A stretch of 64,000 nucleotides of DNA from Chthoniobacterales bacterium. GTDB taxonomy: Bacteria > Verrucomicrobiota > Verrucomicrobiia > Chthoniobacterales > Chthoniobacteraceae. Below are positions 241 to 10,110 of this stretch, piece after piece. How positions within the stretch are numbered: position 1 is the stretch's first letter; each line of letters begins with the position of its first letter. The stretch is from contig JBBQZX010000010.1 of the NCBI GenBank assembly GCA_038207335.1, positions 1-64,000 of the forward strand, in the 5' to 3' direction. Both the position numbers and the translations under genes were made by a program. The notes under the pieces were generated by a model. The model made no database searches. It was not told the origin of the DNA and was given only the letters and a program-made list of their open reading frames with translations.

Positions 241-264
241 CTTTGACAACGCGCTCCCGGCGTG
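241..264 (+). promoter_or_regulatory. Element-specific motif copy 1: CTTTGACA-A-CGCG-CTCC-CGGC-GTG
   Basis: TTGACA at 243-248, 13 nt before GTG 262; 18/24 identical to the copy at 5167-5190. Confidence 0.65.
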
Positions 265-2628
265 AGCGACCTCGATCTCTACGCCGACCTCATCACCCGC
301 AAGCTCGTCTCGCGTGATGGCGGCGCGGTGTCGCTTTCGCCATTCGTGCTGGGCGACCAGTTGCGCTGCTCGCTGCGGACCTACGAGCGCAGCGAAAGCG
401 GTGATTTGCGGGAGCGCGATCTGCGCCTGAGGACTCTGCGGGCCAGCATCGGCAAGGTTCTCGCGGCTCCGACGAGCGGCTGGTTCAAGCTGTGGATTGG
501 CGACACCGACACGCCGGAGATCAATTTCGACGCCACGGCCGATGTCTTCAAAACGGCGGCGCAGGGCTCGGGCATCATCGACACCGTGGAAAGTCCGGTG
601 ACGGGAACGTGGGTCGTGAAGACGACGCGCGCGGACGATGAAGGGCCATATCCGATCCGCGTTCACACGAACAAACTCGGGCCGATCTCCTTCGTGCGCG
701 TGCGGCAGTTCAAACAGCTCGGAGTCTGGTGGTTTGAATGCCGGCTGATCCAAGCACCGCTGGCGTTCAACGCCGGTCACGAGCGCGTCCTCCCAACGCC
801 TCCGAGCATCCGGCGTATCCGCTCGGGCGATGCCGGCAGCGAGACACAGCCGCCGAGCAATGAAATCCAGGCGCTTTATCTGCCGCAGGATTTCCGCGGC
901 ACGTATTTCCTGCGCTGGAACTATCGCGTCTCGAAGCTGCTCGGGATTGAGGACGGGCCGGATGAAATAGCGGCGGCGCTCAATGCGATGTTCGAGAGTG
1001 GCAAGCAATTCGAGGTGACGAACCCGGAGCCGGATCACGCATACATCGAGTTCACGGGCGAACTCGAAGGCGCCTCCCAACCGCTCATCACCGTCGAGGT
1101 GAACACCTTTGCGCCCGGCGTGCTCACGTTCACGTTGCCTCTAGATCGCGCCGAAATGGCGGCGGCGCTGCGAGCGGTGCCGGAGATCGAAGTGCCGTTC
1201 GAGGTCGAGGCCGAGATCGTGGAGGACGGCGAAGACATCGCCGACCCCGCGGTGTCGGGCCGCATCATCACGCTCTTTCAGCAGCCTGTGAAAATCGTGC
1301 GCGAGCAAATCTGGGAAGAGATGCAAACGGTGCAGCCGATCGACTGGCTGCGTCCGCCTCAACCGCGCGACTACATTCCATTCACGCCCGACCAGATCAT
1401 CTTCGGCGTGCAGCATTACGTGGCGGTTTTCGGCGACGGCGAACTGCGTTCGTTCTCGTTCCCGCACAATCTCGGCACCGAGGCATTCCATCTGACCGTC
1501 CGGGCGAACGCATCGGGCGGCCGTGTGCTCGTGAACGGCGTGGATTTCACCATCACGATCCCGAGCGCGAATGAGGCCATGCTCGACTTCCCACTGACCG
1601 CGCCGGTGCCCGCGCTCAACAGCCTCGCGCTGGTGCTTTCGAGCGCAGGACCGCGCAGCGCCTTTCTCGCGCACACGCACACGATGGCGCAGATCATCGG
1701 GCTCCTCGACGCGCTCGCCGGAGTCTATGCGCGGCTCGAAAACATCGAAGACCTGCTGCCCAAACCCAATCTGCTGGGGCGTCGCGAAAAGAAGGTGCCG
1801 CAGGAAATCGAGATCCCGGATCGCGTCGAATTGTTTCCAAGCGGACGCCTGCCAGCGAACTTCGATTCCAAGTCTCTCGAAAATGGCAAGACCGCGACGT
1901 TGCCGCGGCCGCCCGGCCTTCTGCCGGCAATCCACGACGCGACCGTGGTGCCAATCAGCATCCCGCTCCCGCGCGCGGAACCGAACGCGGGCAACGTGTT
2001 CCAAAACACCACGAGTGCGCCGCTGCTCGTGCCCGGCGGCCTCGGCCGACGCGGTGGCTATCTCGAGCCGCAGGGCTATGCGGGCAGCGATGGCCGCGTG
2101 TGGTATCGGCTGTCCCGAGCAGCGCAGACCAACTCGTTCTTCCCACACGATTTCGAGCGCGAACTCTTTCTGCTGCACATCAACGAAGCGATGTGGCAGC
2201 CGGGCGGAGAGTTCACCGTGGAGTTCGATTTGGAGCTGCAACTCCTGGCCGCAAACACGCGCGCGCAATTTCTCTTGGTGATCGAGGCGGGCTCGGCCCC
2301 CGGCCAAATCACGCCCGCGCCTGTCGCCGAAAATCTCGCGGATGTCGTCTGGCGTCCATCTCCGCTGCTCTCGCAGCGCATCATCCTCAGCAGCCTCAAG
2401 CTCAAGCATCACTTCGGCGCCCTCATCCGTCGCTCACTCGACGACGTGCTCACCGCCGAGCGCCGGCTCTATACGACTTGGAGCGCGTGCGGGGCACCGG
2501 CCGTGCCGGAAACGCTTGGCTTCATGCTCCGCGCGCGGCTCATCCAATTCGACACCGAGAACAGCGTGCGCGGCGCGAAGGGTTTCGTCTTCTACGCCTT
2601 CAGCCAAGGCAAAGCCCAGATCTGCTAA
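262..2628 (+). CDS. Putative phage tail/baseplate-fibre structural protein (788 aa)
   Basis: Long ORF with good codon bias; HTHTMAQIIGL matches the HxHxxxxIxGL tail-fibre repeat motif; GDG...HNLG motif typical of phage structural proteins; beta-rich. Confidence 0.65.
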   Translation: MSDLDLYADLITRKLVSRDGGAVSLSPFVLGDQLRCSLRTYERSESGDLRERDLRLRTLRASIGKVLAAPTSGWFKLWIGDTDTPEINFDATADVFKTAAQGSGIIDTVESPVTGTWVVKTTRADDEGPYPIRVHTNKLGPISFVRVRQFKQLGVWWFECRLIQAPLAFNAGHERVLPTPPSIRRIRSGDAGSETQPPSNEIQALYLPQDFRGTYFLRWNYRVSKLLGIEDGPDEIAAALNAMFESGKQFEVTNPEPDHAYIEFTGELEGASQPLITVEVNTFAPGVLTFTLPLDRAEMAAALRAVPEIEVPFEVEAEIVEDGEDIADPAVSGRIITLFQQPVKIVREQIWEEMQTVQPIDWLRPPQPRDYIPFTPDQIIFGVQHYVAVFGDGELRSFSFPHNLGTEAFHLTVRANASGGRVLVNGVDFTITIPSANEAMLDFPLTAPVPALNSLALVLSSAGPRSAFLAHTHTMAQIIGLLDALAGVYARLENIEDLLPKPNLLGRREKKVPQEIEIPDRVELFPSGRLPANFDSKSLENGKTATLPRPPGLLPAIHDATVVPISIPLPRAEPNAGNVFQNTTSAPLLVPGGLGRRGGYLEPQGYAGSDGRVWYRLSRAAQTNSFFPHDFERELFLLHINEAMWQPGGEFTVEFDLELQLLAANTRAQFLLVIEAGSAPGQITPAPVAENLADVVWRPSPLLSQRIILSSLKLKHHFGALIRRSLDDVLTAERRLYTTWSACGAPAVPETLGFMLRARLIQFDTENSVRGAKGFVFYAFSQGKAQIC

Positions 2629-3428
2629 TGCCTACTCCCGCACCCACGGCCAAACCCGTGATTAGCGTCCTTCAATCGGTAATTGGATACCTGCAATGGC
2701 AGGCGTTCGAGTTTCAGCCGACGGCGACCGGGGAGCCGACGAAGTGGTATTGCACGGCGCTCGCGCCCGGCCTTTTTTTCGACGAAGAGACGGGCCCGAT
2801 CCTGGGCGCGGCGACGCTGCCGGGCGTCTATGAGTTCACGCTGAGTTGCGAGAACGCGGTCGGGCTTTCCGATCTAGTGACGTTTGCGATGGGGATCGAA
2901 GCGAGCGGCTTTGTCCAGCCTGCCAATGTGCTCGATCTGACGATCGACGTGACGACGCGGCGCGTCTCGCTGGCGGGGATCATTGGCGATGTGGGCGGCG
3001 GCGCGAGCGGCTCCAATGCGGGCGGGGAAAAGTGGGAGCCGCTGTTTTGGGTCAAGGCCGGTGACGACCTGGTGATAAACGTGGGGTTCATCAAAGGGGG
3101 TGTGCAGTTCGATCCGAAGCTTACGGGGCTCAAGTTCGCGCTGAAGGAATTGGAGCCGGAAAACGTGCTCGTTGCTGGCGAGGTTTGGGGGAAAGCGGGC
3201 GCGGGCGACGGTACGTCTTATGTACTCGTCGTGCATATCGATTCCGACGAACTGCGCGGGGCACTGACCAATCACGAGGACGATCAGACCACGCAATTTC
3301 TCGCGCTCGGCGAGTTTGAATGGACGCAGGACAACGAGCTCGATCCGCAGATCGGGCCGGACGTCATCCGCAGTTCGACGCGCACGTTCGGCGTGATGCT
3401 GCCGCGCGACTTGATCGCCAATCCGTAA
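2628..3428 (+). CDS. Putative Ig-like (He_PIG-type) domain phage protein (266 aa)
   Basis: TAATG coupling at 2626-2630 gives start MPTPAP; LAPGLFFDEETGPILGAATLPGVYEFTLSCENAVG fits the putative-Ig consensus LPxGL...TGxIxG....GxYxFT...NxxG. Confidence 0.7.
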   Translation: MPTPAPTAKPVISVLQSVIGYLQWQAFEFQPTATGEPTKWYCTALAPGLFFDEETGPILGAATLPGVYEFTLSCENAVGLSDLVTFAMGIEASGFVQPANVLDLTIDVTTRRVSLAGIIGDVGGGASGSNAGGEKWEPLFWVKAGDDLVINVGFIKGGVQFDPKLTGLKFALKELEPENVLVAGEVWGKAGAGDGTSYVLVVHIDSDELRGALTNHEDDQTTQFLALGEFEWTQDNELDPQIGPDVIRSSTRTFGVMLPRDLIANP

Positions 3429-3433
3429 AAACG

Positions 3434-4732
3434 ATGGCGCGCAATCTCGACTGGTTTCAGGCGCGAAAGCTCGCGCGGGTGGATGCAAAACGCATTCGTC
3501 GCGATGCGTGGCGCTATTGGCTCGAGTTGGACCACACGGTCTATCTCTGGTTCCTGTACCGGCCCGCGGGCGTCATCGAAATCAAGGACGGCGCACCATC
3601 GGTGACGACGGAATCGCGCGCGGTCGTTTTGAATTCGGAATTCCGCGCATTTGAATTTCTCGCGAACGACTGGACCGACGAGCCGTGGTATCTGCCGCCG
3701 CAACCTCCAGCGGTCGATCCTCCCGGCGGCGGTGGTGGAGGCAACGGTGACGGTGGAAGTAATCCGCCGGGCGATGGCGGCAATGGCTCAGGTGGGAGCG
3801 GCGGCGGCGGCGGCAATTCCGGTGGTGCCGGCGGCGGCACCGGTAGCGGCGATGGCGGGATCGGTTCCGGTGGCGGCAGCTCAGGCGGAGGCGGCAGCGA
3901 CAGTGGCGGCTCTGGAAGCTGGGGCAACAATAGCGGCGGCAGCGGCGGTGGATCCCACTCGCCAAGGCCGCCGAGGAAGCGGGTGCCTTGGGGCGATTAC
4001 ACTCCACACGTGACCGTCGATCTTGATCCCGACATCGACGGGCCGGGCTGCTTCATCGAATCGCCACGGCCATGCACCGCATTCGTGAACGTTTCGCTGC
4101 CAGATCCGGGCGATGGCAAACTGAAGATCGCGACCATCTCGGTGACCTGCTTTGGAAAGACGAAACTCGGCACCCTCGCTCCCGGCGGGACGCAGGGATT
4201 TGCGTTCACCGGCAAAGTCAGCGCGGGCCAGGTCGTTACCGCGACGGCGACGGCTTCCGCGGGTGACGGCATCCATTCGTGGACCGGCTCCGGCGAGAAG
4301 GCGTGCGACGTGAAGGACTGTATCAAGACGGCCTTCACCTGGACCGGCGACGAGGAGGATTCGCATCGCTGTCCGCCACAGGGATCCGAGAGCACCGAGA
4401 CCGGCTGGGATTTTTCGGATAGCTATGCGGTGACGCGCCACTATGCGATCAACCCGGAGCCGGGCACGGAGATCGGGATCGTTTACGGCAAGGACTACAA
4501 TCCGCCGGGCAATCGCACGCAACTCACGACGTCTGTTCCCGACGGGCAGACCACCACGGTCAAGCTACACGTCGATGCGCCCGGCGCGGTAACCTGCCAA
4601 GTCAGCGCGCAAGGTGGGATCAGCAACGTCGAGCCGCACAAGCTCGGCATCGTCTACGACGGACCGACGACCATCCAAACCGACCTCCATGGCTGCACCA
4701 CGCAAAAACGCGGAACTGAAACAGGCCCTTGA
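3434..4732 (+). CDS. Multidomain protein: DUF2829/Tad2-like N-terminus, Gly/Ser-rich linker, Cys-containing beta-rich C-terminus (432 aa)
   Basis: ATG 3434 lies 5 nt after the previous stop; N-term LDWFQA...KRIRRDAW...EFLANDW; about 80-residue G/S/N linker. Confidence 0.7.
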   Translation: MARNLDWFQARKLARVDAKRIRRDAWRYWLELDHTVYLWFLYRPAGVIEIKDGAPSVTTESRAVVLNSEFRAFEFLANDWTDEPWYLPPQPPAVDPPGGGGGGNGDGGSNPPGDGGNGSGGSGGGGGNSGGAGGGTGSGDGGIGSGGGSSGGGGSDSGGSGSWGNNSGGSGGGSHSPRPPRKRVPWGDYTPHVTVDLDPDIDGPGCFIESPRPCTAFVNVSLPDPGDGKLKIATISVTCFGKTKLGTLAPGGTQGFAFTGKVSAGQVVTATATASAGDGIHSWTGSGEKACDVKDCIKTAFTWTGDEEDSHRCPPQGSESTETGWDFSDSYAVTRHYAINPEPGTEIGIVYGKDYNPPGNRTQLTTSVPDGQTTTVKLHVDAPGAVTCQVSAQGGISNVEPHKLGIVYDGPTTIQTDLHGCTTQKRGTETGP

Positions 4733-5162
4733 TCAGCTCTGCGCCTTGATCGCGCGGCTTGCTCGGAAGTATTCGATCGGCACCGTGGGCCTGACTGGCA
4801 TCGATGCGCGGAGGACGTCGATGGCTGGCGAAGCCGTCGAGCTGCTGGTGGTGCCTTCCAAAATGGCACTGCCGTTTGCGCGTGCGCTTTCCGATGCGAG
4901 CGGCCGCGCCGTACGCATGCGTGACCCGCAAACGCTGCCTTACACGCATCCCTTTCACTACTGCGTGCGGTGGCTCAACGTGGACCGGTTGCCGGTCTGC
5001 CCGTTCCCGCGCGGAGCGATCCTCACTTCGATCAATGGTGCGCCAACGGCGATTGAGCTGACCGCAATCCCACACTTCGCACCAGCGATGGGCTACGTCC
5101 GCGCGGCGCCCTTAGCGCCGGACTTCGTGCCTGCACCGGCGCTCGGCAGCTTTCTCATCTGA
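4689..5162 (+). CDS. Hypothetical protein (157 aa)
   Basis: ATG 4689 (MAAPRKNAELKQALDQL), overlaps previous gene by 44 nt, same strand as operon; no family recognised. Confidence 0.6.
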   Translation: MAAPRKNAELKQALDQLCALIARLARKYSIGTVGLTGIDARRTSMAGEAVELLVVPSKMALPFARALSDASGRAVRMRDPQTLPYTHPFHYCVRWLNVDRLPVCPFPRGAILTSINGAPTAIELTAIPHFAPAMGYVRAAPLAPDFVPAPALGSFLI

Positions 5163-5166
5163 CCCG

Positions 5167-5190
5167 CTTTGACAGCGCGAGAGCGGCATG
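5167..5190 (+). promoter_or_regulatory. Element-specific motif copy 2: CTTTGACA-G-CGCG-AGAG-CGGC-ATG
   Basis: TTGACA at 5169-5174, 13 nt before ATG 5188. Confidence 0.65.
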
Positions 5191-6147
5191 CAGCCACCTC
5201 GTATTTGCCGACGCCTTCGTGGCGTCATGAGCCTTTGGACGAAGACGCCGATGTTCAGCGTGCATCGAGGTCCGGTGCTGATTCAAACGCTGGCAACCTG
5301 CCTCGCTGCGCGCGCTTTCGAGGAGACGGAATTCGTCACCGACGATCGCGGGGCAGCCATCGCGAAGCTCCTCGGCTGGCCGTTCACGAACATTTCCACG
5401 GCGCTCGAAAGCTGGCCAACCGATGGCCTGGGACACATTTGGGCGCTTGGAAAACTCGTGGCGTGTGCTGTCCAAGAGCAGCCGTTCGTTCAGTTCGACG
5501 GCGACGTGATGCTCTTCAAAGCGTTGCCAAAACGGGTAGAGCGATTCCGCCTGATCGCCCAATCGCCGGATTACGCGCACTACTACACTTCGCCCGACAT
5601 GCTTGCGGCTCAGCGGATCGCGGGCTTCCCGCCCGCGGCGCCCGCATTCAATGGCGGGCTGCTCGGCGGCAACGACGTCGCGCTCGTGCGCGCCTACGCG
5701 TGGGCCGGCCTTGAACTGGCGCAGAAGTTCCGCGGCAGCCCGCTCAACGGCACCACGACTTCGATGCTCGTCGAGCAGTATCAGCTCGGCGTTTTCGCAC
5801 AGCGCGTGGGCGTTGAGGTGGGCACCCTTCTGCCGCTCCATCCCACTCGGAAGCAGGTCGCCAAAGCGGGATATGCGCATCTGACTGGCGGCGCAAAACG
5901 TGACCCCGAGTTGATCGCTCGCGCCGAGCAGCGCCTCGCTCGCGACTTCCCGGAAGCCTACGTGCGCTTCCTCGCGATGTGGCCGCAGGTCGAGGCTTTG
6001 ACACCTCGCGGCGGCTGTGAATACGCCAGCTCCAATTCCAGCGCCGAGCCGACCGGGCATCAGCTTCTGCACGACCTGCAAGGGCCGACTGCACCACCTT
6101 CGCGAGTCCCTTCCGCGCACGCTCGAAAGCCTGCTGCCCGGCGATGA
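5188..6147 (+). CDS. DUF6734-like putative glycosyltransferase
   Basis: SLWTK, VTD, WALGKL, QEQPFVQFDGDV (DxD), FNGGLLGG, LVEQY motif series; C-terminal 43 codons overlap the next gene. Confidence 0.7.
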   Translation: MQPPRICRRLRGVMSLWTKTPMFSVHRGPVLIQTLATCLAARAFEETEFVTDDRGAAIAKLLGWPFTNISTALESWPTDGLGHIWALGKLVACAVQEQPFVQFDGDVMLFKALPKRVERFRLIAQSPDYAHYYTSPDMLAAQRIAGFPPAAPAFNGGLLGGNDVALVRAYAWAGLELAQKFRGSPLNGTTTSMLVEQYQLGVFAQRVGVEVGTLLPLHPTRKQVAKAGYAHLTGGAKRDPELIARAEQRLARDFPEAYVRFLAMWPQVEALTPRGGCEYASSNSSAEPTGHQLLHDLQGPTAPPSRVPSAHARKPAARR

Positions 6148-6766
6148 AGTCGTCCTGCTCGACTACGATTCGCAGGACGGATTGGTGGACTGGGTCCGCG
6201 CGGAACTGACGCCCAAAATCCGCGCAGGTCGGGTGCGTTTTGTGCAGCTCGATGAAGGTCCGCAGCCGTGGCATCCGACGCGCGCGAAGAACATCGCCCA
6301 CTTCTGCGCGCGCCATCCAGTTGTTTGCAATCTCGACGCCGACAATTGGGTCGTCCCGGGCTTTTCCGCATGGCTTCGCGAGGTCTTCGCGCGTGACGGA
6401 CGCCGCATCACCAGCATGAGCCCTCGGACGTGCGGCGGCGGCTTCGGCCGGATCGCACTGCGCAAATCAGACTGGCTCGCCCTTGGGGGCTACGACGTGC
6501 GGATCCGATCCTGGGGTTGGGAGGACAATGACCTCTTGCTGCGCGCCGAGGCCGCGGGAGTTGAGGTCGTCATGACGCCGGACAACTTCGCCGCGTTCCG
6601 CCGCCACGGCGACTGCGAGCGCGTCTTCGCCGAAGGCGCAAACGATAAGACAACCAGTCTCGCCATCAGTCGCCGGAACGCCGCAGCTACGCTCGCCGGG
6701 CAAAAGTGCATCGCCAACGCCGGCCACCCCTGCGCGAACGTCCGGGTGCGCGTGAATTTCGCCTGA
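6017..6766 (+). CDS. GT-A glycosyltransferase (GT2 N-term / GT7 C-term-like)
   Basis: ISFCTTCKGRLHHL, VLLDYDSQD, RAKNIA, NLDADN (DxD), GGYD....WGWEDNDL. Confidence 0.85.
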   Translation: MNTPAPIPAPSRPGISFCTTCKGRLHHLRESLPRTLESLLPGDEVVLLDYDSQDGLVDWVRAELTPKIRAGRVRFVQLDEGPQPWHPTRAKNIAHFCARHPVVCNLDADNWVVPGFSAWLREVFARDGRRITSMSPRTCGGGFGRIALRKSDWLALGGYDVRIRSWGWEDNDLLLRAEAAGVEVVMTPDNFAAFRRHGDCERVFAEGANDKTTSLAISRRNAAATLAGQKCIANAGHPCANVRVRVNFA

Positions 6767-6769
6767 ACC

Positions 6770-7462
6770 GTGGACATCCGGGCGACCTTTCCGTTTCGCG
6801 TGTTCATCAGCCTCGAATCACGCATCGACCGACGTGAGCGGTTCCTGCCGAGACTCGCGGCGGCAAACCTCGATGCCGAATGGTTCAAGGCCGTGGACGC
6901 TGACACTCTCCGCGGCGACCCCCGCGGATTTCTCGACGTCCGTAAACGCTCCCTCGCGCTCGGCAAACGTCTCATCCTTCGCGAGGCCGAAAGCCGGAAA
7001 GCCGACGCCGTGCTCATCTTCGAGGACGATGCCATTTTTCATCCGGGATTCGTCGCCGAAACTGCGGCACTCACCTTGCCCAATGATTGGGGCATCTTCT
7101 ATTTCGGTTGCCAGCATATCGAGACACCGCAACCCGTAGCACCCGGCCTCTTCCGGGTCAGTCGCGCACTCGATGGTCACGCCTTTGCCGTGCGCCGTAA
7201 GTACTACGCTGCAGTGCGGGCTTCGATGCGGGGTGGTGCCAAGGGCACTGTCGATGAACTGCACAGCGATGTGCTTCTCTCCAGCCTTCACGGGATCATT
7301 CCGACCTATGCTGCTTACCCCAATCTCGCCTGGCAGGCCGTCGAGCATTCCGACCTCACAGACACTTGTTACAGCAACTATTTTTCCGACGGGTCTCAGT
7401 GCTGGTTCCGCCACCTTCTGCCACCGTTTTGCAAGGACGGGAATTTGACGTGCGTGCAGTAA
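6770..7462 (+). CDS. Glycosyltransferase family 25-like
   Basis: FISLESRIDRR, FKAVD, LIFEDDA, LPNDWGIFYFG motifs. Confidence 0.85.
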   Translation: MDIRATFPFRVFISLESRIDRRERFLPRLAAANLDAEWFKAVDADTLRGDPRGFLDVRKRSLALGKRLILREAESRKADAVLIFEDDAIFHPGFVAETAALTLPNDWGIFYFGCQHIETPQPVAPGLFRVSRALDGHAFAVRRKYYAAVRASMRGGAKGTVDELHSDVLLSSLHGIIPTYAAYPNLAWQAVEHSDLTDTCYSNYFSDGSQCWFRHLLPPFCKDGNLTCVQ

Positions 7463-7466
7463 GATG
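7444..7466 (+). promoter_or_regulatory. Element-specific motif, degenerate copy 3: TTTGACG-N13-ATG
   Basis: TTGACG 7445-7450, 13 nt before ATG 7464; spacer poorly conserved because it overlaps the GT25 3' end. Confidence 0.45.
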
Positions 7467-7823
7467 AAGCTACGTCTCACTCTCGCCATCCTCCTCGTCG
7501 CCGTGCTTCCCAGCGTCGCTCTCGGCGCGGTCGGCGTGGCGACGGGCGCCATTCCGTTCGAGTCGGAAATCGATTATCTCGCCAGCAAAAACATCGCCTA
7601 TTGGTTCCTCGCACTGGCCGCAATTTCAATTGCGAGCTGGTCCTTCATTGTCCGCTGGATGCTCAATCAACTCGAAAGCCAGCGCACCGTGAACGCCGAC
7701 GTGACCAACAAGCTCATCTCCTACATGGAAGGCGACCACTCCAAGATGATCGTCGTCACCGAGAAGGTGCTGTTCGTCATGGACAAGGTGATCGAACGGC
7801 TGGATCGGCGGCCGCTCACGTAG
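7464..7823 (+). CDS. Small membrane protein, possible holin (TM + coiled-coil tail)
   Basis: Hydrophobic N-terminus, second TM (IAYWFLALAAISIASWSFIVRW), amphipathic C-terminal helix; last gene of the + strand operon. Confidence 0.6.
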   Translation: MKLRLTLAILLVAVLPSVALGAVGVATGAIPFESEIDYLASKNIAYWFLALAAISIASWSFIVRWMLNQLESQRTVNADVTNKLISYMEGDHSKMIVVTEKVLFVMDKVIERLDRRPLT

Positions 7824-8640: not shown

Positions 8641-8665
8641 GCTCGCGCGTCACGTCAATTTTTTG
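8638..8665 (-). promoter_or_regulatory. Element-specific motif copy 4: CAAAAAATTGACG-N12-ATG
   Basis: TTGACG 8658-8653, 12 nt before ATG 8640; shares CAAAAAATTGAC exactly with the copy upstream of the integrase; includes the integrase stop codon. Confidence 0.5.
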
Positions 8666-9860
8666 GCGAAGGAAGGATGGCGAACCATTCCTTCGCTGCG
8701 TCAGGCGTAACCAGCTCGCGGTAGTGTCGAAACAGCTTGTCGGGCGAGTTGCCCATCTCCAGCGCGACCTTCGCGGCGTCCGGCGTGTCTGCGAGCCGGT
8801 AGCTGGCGTAGCTGTGGCGCAGGGCATTTTGCCGCCAGCCCACGCCGGAATTGTCGCCGAGATAGTTTAGTCGGAATGCGACGTTGGGCACGAAGCAGAC
8901 GTGCCCCTCCGCTTTCTTCAACGGCTCGAGCCACGCGCGCAGATTCGGCAGAAGTGGCACGAGACGGCGGGCCTTGGTCTTTGCCTTCGCCGCTTTGATT
9001 TCGATGTAGCCGCGATCCCATAGAATATCTCGCCAATCGAGCCGCTCGATCTCGGCAGAACGGATGCCGGAGAACGCGCCAATGACGATGTGGGGCAGTA
9101 GATTCACTGGGCACACCGCCAGAATCTTCCCCAATTCCGCAGCCGTGAAGATCGCCGGCGCACTCTCAGTGCCCTGGAAAGTCATGGCACGCTCAGCCGC
9201 GGTCTTGCGTTCCTGATCCAAATAGCCCTGCTGCCTCGCCCACTTGAACGTCGTCACGAGAATGCGCCGGAGACTGTTTTTCGTCGTGTGATTGCCGTGT
9301 GCCTCCCGCAACCATGCATCGATCTGCGTGGTCGTGATGTCCGCGATGGGCTGTTCGCTAAAGGCGAGCTTCATCCGCGTGAGATAGTGCTTCAGGCCGC
9401 GCCGATAGACGAGGCTGACGCCCGCCGCTACCTTGGAGGCGAGGCATTCATCGGCGACCACTCCGAAGGACTTGTTCGGCAGACCGCCGTGATGCGCGTT
9501 GTAGAAGCGCACCGCGTCGAGGATCGAACCGCCGTTCACAGAGGTCTTGGCGTCAGACCATTCCTCGACCGCACTGGTCAGAGTAAGACCGAATCGCTTC
9601 GTCCGTGCCTCGCACGCGCGGAATAGCTCGATGTCGCGCTGCGCTACCGGATCGGCGGACGGCAGTTCGTGCCGACACGAACTGTGAACCTGCTGAGCAA
9701 AGAGCTTTGCCGCATCGACGCTGGCGAAGGTCTTCGTCTTGCGTCGGCCAAGTTCGTACCAGGCGCACTGGAAGGAAGGGTAGCCGTCCTTCCTGCGGAG
9801 CGTGTAGATCTTGATTTCGGCATCGGCGCTGCCCACGGTGATGATTGATCTGCGTCGCAT
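8655..9860 (-). CDS. Tyrosine recombinase / phage integrase (401 aa)
   Basis: GIRSAEI (catalytic R), KAKTK, NALRHSYASY, EMGNS, FRHY (catalytic Y); likely start ATG 9860 (MRRRSIITVG). Confidence 0.95.
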   Translation of the reverse strand: MRRRSIITVGSADAEIKIYTLRRKDGYPSFQCAWYELGRRKTKTFASVDAAKLFAQQVHSSCRHELPSADPVAQRDIELFRACEARTKRFGLTLTSAVEEWSDAKTSVNGGSILDAVRFYNAHHGGLPNKSFGVVADECLASKVAAGVSLVYRRGLKHYLTRMKLAFSEQPIADITTTQIDAWLREAHGNHTTKNSLRRILVTTFKWARQQGYLDQERKTAAERAMTFQGTESAPAIFTAAELGKILAVCPVNLLPHIVIGAFSGIRSAEIERLDWRDILWDRGYIEIKAAKAKTKARRLVPLLPNLRAWLEPLKKAEGHVCFVPNVAFRLNYLGDNSGVGWRQNALRHSYASYRLADTPDAAKVALEMGNSPDKLFRHYRELVTPDAAKEWFAILPSPKN

Positions 9861-9894
9861 GGCTTTGTGCCGCGTGCGCGAAGTCAATTTTTTG
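9858..9894 (-). promoter_or_regulatory. Element-specific motif copy 5: CAAAAAATTGACT-T-CGCG-CACG-CGGC-ACAAAGCC-ATG
   Basis: TTGACT 9887-9882 followed by the same N-CGCG-N4-CGGC-R spacer; ATG 8 nt further on. Confidence 0.6.
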
Positions 9895-9913
9895 CATGAA
9901 CTTTTGCATGGAA
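9890..9913. repeat. Tandem 12-bp direct repeat TTTTGCATGAAC / TTTTGCATGGAA, candidate integrase arm-type sites
   Basis: Read directly; lies between the integrase start and the presumed att boundary. Confidence 0.55.
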
Positions 9914-10110
9914 TCTCCGTCCCAGTCGGTGCGCCGCTTGCGGAAGCGTCGTGAATTGAACTACTTGCGGATTCTACCAAAAACCCCGCTGCAGCGAACG
10001 GCTCCGTGCGTCACGGGAGCTGCTTCCACCGCCACCTTTCCACCCGCCATGCAACTCCCGCGCCGCCCTCCGCAGTCGTGGAGCTGGGGTCGTGAGGCGG
10101 CATTAGGCTG

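Follow-up and report, generated by a model that had tools for sequence, protein, structure and literature searches.

A predicted Tad2-fold domain heads a family of prophage tail-module proteins with variable surface-type cargo in Chthoniobacterales

The window, i.e., the whole stretch of 64,000 nucleotides analyzed here, begins with the first base of contig C10 and includes the right-hand part of a prophage, without its head genes and tape measure gene. Our analysis centered on a stop-free frame of 432 aa on the forward strand (3434-4732), whose product has the N-terminus MARNLDWFQARKLARVDAKRIRRDAW...EFLANDWTDEPW and whose parts and neighbors are listed in Table 1. Since an alternative in-frame ATG at 3320 overlaps the upstream gene, and since the six closest relatives begin with M(A)(R/K)NL, position 3434 is likely the start codon, as judged from the sequences. 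The gene then begins 5 bases past the preceding gene for a 266-aa protein. Promoter and terminator scans performed at chance level, and the ESM Atlas gave no usable match to either end of the protein.

Table 1. Features of the 432-aa gene and of the surrounding prophage, with positions in the window.
Feature	Position	Strand	Evidence
788-aa conserved tail-module gene, second candidate partner	262..2628	+	16/21 clustered loci; weak PHROG matches
266-aa tail gene, constant upstream neighbor, candidate docking partner	2628..3428	+	He_PIG E 0.0013; synteny
Residues 1-85 of the 432-aa protein, Tad2-fold domain, likely tail-docking module	3434..3688	+	AF2 model, fold searches, conservation in 118 members
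Residues 86-186, flexible Pro/Gly/Ser-rich linker	3689..3991	+	Sequence; pLDDT <50, without secondary structure
Residues 187-296, Ig/FnIII-like beta-sandwich	3992..4321	+	pLDDT mostly 76-94
Residues 297-432, second beta-rich domain, candidate binding domain	4322..4732	+	Middling-confidence model
Tyrosine integrase, right end of prophage	8655..9980	-	phrog_1 E 1.3e-23

An earlier note on this DNA, made from the letters alone, had described an approximately 80-aa linker of Gly, Ser, Asn and Asp followed by a beta-type C-terminus bearing Cys residues. Both features were recovered: the Gly/Ser/Asn/Asp run covers residues 98-174 within a Pro/Gly linker of about residues 86-186, and residues 187-432, which contain 8 Cys, were modeled as all-beta. 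The content and length of the linker differ among relatives. Residues 185-294 reached Z 8-9 against many Ig-like domains in a fold search, and the domain formed by residues 297-432 is missing or substituted in many relatives. The full-length model was built on a 7-sequence alignment and gave a pLDDT of <50 for the N-terminal domain, for which a model based on 122 sequences was used instead.

The product of the upstream gene consists of an N-terminal Ig-like domain and a beta domain, BppU_N-like by eye, and it matched the tail protein family phrog_8763 with E 0.04 in the window and 4e-5 to 2.5e-6 in relatives. A homologue of this gene was found immediately upstream in 34/34 loci tested, out of 46 loci of which the other 12 were short, duplicate, broken, spurious or not included; one of these 12 untallied loci (L122) has a different gene upstream. 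A separate search of genomes of Chthoniobacterales, in which some loci repeat earlier ones, placed the 266-aa gene directly upstream in 27/29 loci and 21/22 regions, the exceptional region being cut by a contig end. Further upstream, relatives carry genes for the tape measure, the small and large terminase, the portal, the maturation protease and the major capsid protein, an arrangement which we take to be lambda-like; no sheath gene was noticed upstream in relatives. The gene order in relatives thus bears out the placement of the gene inside a tail-gene cluster by the earlier note.

Downstream of the gene (5188-7462), and likewise in several relatives, lie a DUF6734 gene and two glycosyltransferase genes (GT2, GT25), whose products may modify either the appendage, by glycosylation, or the surface of the host. 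A repeat of ∼113 bases just past the integrase (9987-10099) was present on at least 12 other contigs. Pieces of related elements were found in the same genome on contigs C2, C6, C46 and C52. On C46 (L001:4912-6659), a second copy is 91% identical to window positions 3745-7817 and, at a junction inside the Gly linker, runs into the gene that follows the tape measure, ∼7 kb including the Tad2-fold domain being missing. A domain swap was considered for this copy and rejected, as the junction looks like a deletion joint; the copy is a deletion remnant or a misassembly.

A search with residues 1-90 found six relatives with 47-54% identity. A search of 1.84 billion representatives with the full-length alignment of the protein and these six matched 213 clusters (E<=0.001), 150 of which were listed, and the domain is therefore not a product of chance. 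As the family set was built from a full-length query, it favors fused forms. Among the named loci, 20/21 belong to Verrucomicrobiota, mostly Chthoniobacterales; the remaining one (L025) was rejected as a spurious match of only 13 residues. The domain profile matched 20/301 genomes of Chthoniobacterales and 1/401 genomes across the phylum, the latter being the genome of the window. A related prophage is carried by the cultured Chthoniobacter flavus (locus L015), and the sources of the phage family are soil and freshwater. Neither the domain nor the 266-aa neighbor had a credible match among the isolated phages of INPHARED. One member (L013:10001-10444) is truncated: after 148 aa, its frame enters integrase-like sequence read on the reverse strand.

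For residues 1-87, the AF2 model based on the 122-sequence alignment reached a pLDDT of 94.9, and its core comprises α1, β1-5 and α3, as does the core fold of Tad2. Nine Tad2 entries aligned to it with Z 7.9-8.9 and an rmsd of 1.9-2.6 Å over 62-67 residues, the next fold reaching Z 3.7. In a fold search against 48,161 chains, MoTad2 ranked first (Z 8.5, rmsd 2.1, 63 aligned) and AcrIIA7 second (Z 8.3), followed by chains with 5.2 and 3.4. The Foldseek comparison with Tad2 structures that the earlier note had proposed returned Tad2 in all ten top PDB rows, the best with E 0.036 and none at E 0.001.

Also proposed there was a comparison with the DUF2829 profile. The 432-aa query itself remained unmatched to PF11195 (Tad2-like; cut-off 25 bits) at E<=1, whereas SPO1 Tad2 scores 85.8 bits against this family, and no PF11195 match was present in the genome of the window. 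A profile-profile comparison with Tad2 scored 25.1, well above 60 column shuffles (mean 2.5, maximum 8.1) and the reversed profile (4.2), with a probability of 31% (47-54% untrimmed). PF11195 was also the Pfam family matched most by members (11/122 at E<=0.5, best 8.8e-4), and their top PHROG was phrog_2709 (10 members), which SPO1 Tad2 matches at 9e-10. The domain alone had a single match among the PHROGs, phrog_643, a Tad2-related family (E 0.37); Pfam, PHROG and PDB searches run directly with the domain sequence gave nothing significant, and a PDB search with the full alignment returned linker noise only. Model, fold searches and the profile comparison with its controls support the DUF2829/Tad2 fold first suggested from sequence: residues 1-85 are predicted to share it, and a distant homology to Tad2 is likely.

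The proteins of the Tad2/DUF2829 family (PF11195), such as SPO1 Tad2, MoTad2, HgmTad2/AcrIIA7 and SptTad2, have the same helix, five-stranded sheet and short helix, and share with the domain the anchors F7/W7, A10, R22/R23, W25/W26, L81-A82 and D84-W85, at an overall identity of 14-18%. In SPO1 Tad2, gcADPR is reported to be contacted by W25, N26, W73, T78 and D79, together with waters on S76, and the dimer to be made by α2 with β2 (10.1101/2023.05.01.538930). The pocket is described as intact in ∼99% of Tad2 homologues and predicted to be non-functional in 1%, and a second pocket arises in long variants from an insertion at β2 (10.1101/2023.11.15.567273).

These positions were mapped to the domain by motif anchors and secondary structure and compared between 118 family domains (the 122 members minus 4 without the end motif) and 62 distinct Tad2 domains. 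W-N, i.e., N26, was present in 1/118 family domains vs. 59/62 Tad2 domains, Ser at S76 in 3/118 vs. 58/62, and the second Trp in the region of W73 in 5/118 vs. 59/62. Since the Tad2 set was retrieved with patterns that hold pocket residues, its conservation figures are inflated, and the published 1% of non-functional pockets serves as an independent check. W-N was likewise found in 0/30 more distant matches. The position of T78 is mostly Ala or Asp in the family. The earlier note had found the WNG asparagine and the W..SQTD residues not conserved in the single protein, which is correct; the loss of N26, W73 and S76 extends across the family.

The family domains are also shorter. The span from the Trp to the DW motif measures 41.5 residues vs. 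61 in Tad2, ∼20 fewer, and in the model β2 and β3 are connected by a tight turn where Tad2 has α2. The α2/β2-β3 insertion, which provides the dimer contact and the second pocket of Tad2, therefore appears to be missing from the family. One member (L024:9947-11131) contains ∼155 aa, Ig-like by eye, inserted in the domain at the hairpin whose Tad2 counterpart lines the pocket. W7, R22, W29, W39, V64, F70, F75 and T81 are near-invariant in the 118 members; this family-specific pattern suggests a different conserved binding surface. By the features tested, the domain is thus Tad2-like in fold and outside the sponge family.

These observations bear on the possibility that the domain still oligomerizes and sequesters an immune signal, possibly another one, and that the protein, made late in the cytoplasm, offsets an alarm triggered by tail proteins before its own assembly onto the virion. 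The whole core fold and W25 are retained, as is an acid at D79, mostly Glu (Asp in 22/118 family vs. 60/62 Tad2 domains; Asp or Glu in 114/118 vs. 61/62), and Tad2 homologues are reported to bind diverse signals (10.1101/2025.08.24.671296). Moreover, side tail fibers of Pseudomonas phages are reported to activate type II Thoeris (10.64898/2026.06.04.730250), which would give a reason for fusing a sponge to a tail protein. However, the family-wide loss of N26, W73 and S76, the probable absence of the second-pocket insertion and the large insert in the pocket-lining hairpin argue against this reading, collagen cargo, being trimeric, would suit a tetramer poorly, and the fixed place after one tail gene is unlike that of mobile anti-defense genes. 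Position alone does not decide the matter, because true Tad2 genes also lie beside small late or lysis-like genes, as seen by eye in L027, L028 and L029. Overall, we consider a role as a sponge unlikely.

A further difference from Tad2 lies in what follows the domain. In the family, a median of 225 residues come after it, and only 4/117 members have <=45 residues and no clear cargo, whereas 80/87 Tad2 matches end <=10 residues from the stop. The view of Tad2 as a stand-alone protein, taken in the earlier note, is therefore mostly correct but has exceptions, as Tad2 has been reported in fusion with two other sponges, Acb4 and Sequestin (PF21825), one of these fusions being active (10.1101/2025.07.12.664507). 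Those fusions likewise use the Tad2 fold as a module of a longer protein; their partners, however, are sponges, while the partners in the present family are Ig, collagen, lectin-like and EGF-like domains. Specifically, the cargo of relatives includes collagen repeats (L140, E 1.4e-7), He_PIG, Listeria-Bacteroides repeats, PA-IL-like and cEGF domains, and at least two Cys follow the domain in 90/117 members. In some members (P0084, P0147, P0156, L004, L140), the domain is internal, C-terminal or doubled. Two tandem genes with different cargo were found in 8/22 regions, and also in L140 and L141. In L140 (9902-12457), three consecutive genes encode a C-terminal Tad2-fold domain, an N-terminal Tad2-fold domain with collagen, and a further collagen fiber.

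Phage tail appendages typically combine a small domain that stays constant with a flexible stalk, exchangeable surface-type cargo and a fixed distal position in the tail; tail fibers and Ig-bearing decorations have a conserved anchor, a flexible stalk and variable C-terminal binding domains. The family resembles them in each of these respects, its gene lying in the distal tail module and its conserved anchor preceding a variable surface-type C-terminus, and it is this combination that leads us to read the protein as a tail appendage. We therefore regard it as more likely than not that the Tad2-fold domain fastens swappable adhesive cargo to the tail tip rather than acting as a sponge. The protein would be made late, together with the tail genes, and its invariant surface (W7, R22, R23, W29, W39, F70, E74, F75, D79, W80, T81) would bind a protein of the tail tip, most likely the 266-aa neighbor. 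The flexible linker would then give the cargo reach to glycans of the cell surface or matrix, and in phages with two such genes, equivalent sites might receive two different appendages. Of the two functions weighed in the earlier note, an attachment module is the one that fits the evidence, while the sponge is made less likely by the loss of pocket residues.

The protein could also be a virion decoration anchored elsewhere, at the neck, tube or capsid, as are the known decorations T4 Hoc and T5 pb10, and Ig domains are indeed typical cargo of virion decoration proteins. In the wide fold search, the third-ranking chain was gp164 of Staphylococcus phage 812 (8QKH chain S), a stopper decoration of the virion with a small helix-sheet-helix N-domain (Z 5.2, rmsd 4.5 Å, 76 aligned, 9% identity), which is described as decorating the neck, with a presumed role in whisker attachment (PMC12886913). 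This match is weak, a Z of 5.2 being within the range of common arrangements, and gp164 has no Tad2 Pfam match and sits at the neck, not the tail tip. Since the gene family stays beside distal tail genes and not beside head or neck genes, we find an anchor elsewhere on the virion improbable.

More improbable still is a protein that is not part of the virion, acting either as a chaperone in assembly or as an adhesin set free by lysis. The full 432-aa protein matched no PHROG, and with the glycosyltransferase and DUF6734 genes downstream it borders an accessory block, both of which would suit such a role. Yet no signal peptide is visible in the 432-aa sequence, and the combination of a constant N-terminus, a variable C-terminus and collagen cargo is that of a fiber.

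To our knowledge, the Tad2 fold has so far been known only as an anti-defense sponge. A domain that kept the fold, dropped the pocket and took a place among tail genes would show a second, structural job for it, and raises the testable question of whether virion parts gave rise to sponges or sponges to virion parts. No phage fiber or decoration anchor with a Tad2 fold was found in the searches made, nor a Tad2-fold virion protein in the literature searched, a scope that left aside most subscription papers and the supplementary homologue tables of the Tad2 preprints, which could contain family members; the available portions of PMC13299392 and PMC13700489 mention none. Docking and sequestration might also be combined, the domain both docking the adhesive cargo and soaking up a tail-triggered immune signal through a remodeled pocket. 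Such a dual role seems to us as unlikely as a sponge proper, but if true it would be the first case of a structural virion protein doubling as a sponge and would link the origin of sponges with virion parts. The preferred reading, in which the domain docks cargo to the tail, suggests that the nearly unstudied phages of Verrucomicrobia use a plug-in adhesin system. It also implies that fold-based annotation would mislabel the genes of this family as anti-Thoeris. True Tad2 genes were found in 4/201 genomes of a sample of the phylum. In L156, the cargo of the second gene resembles a NIDO domain by eye.
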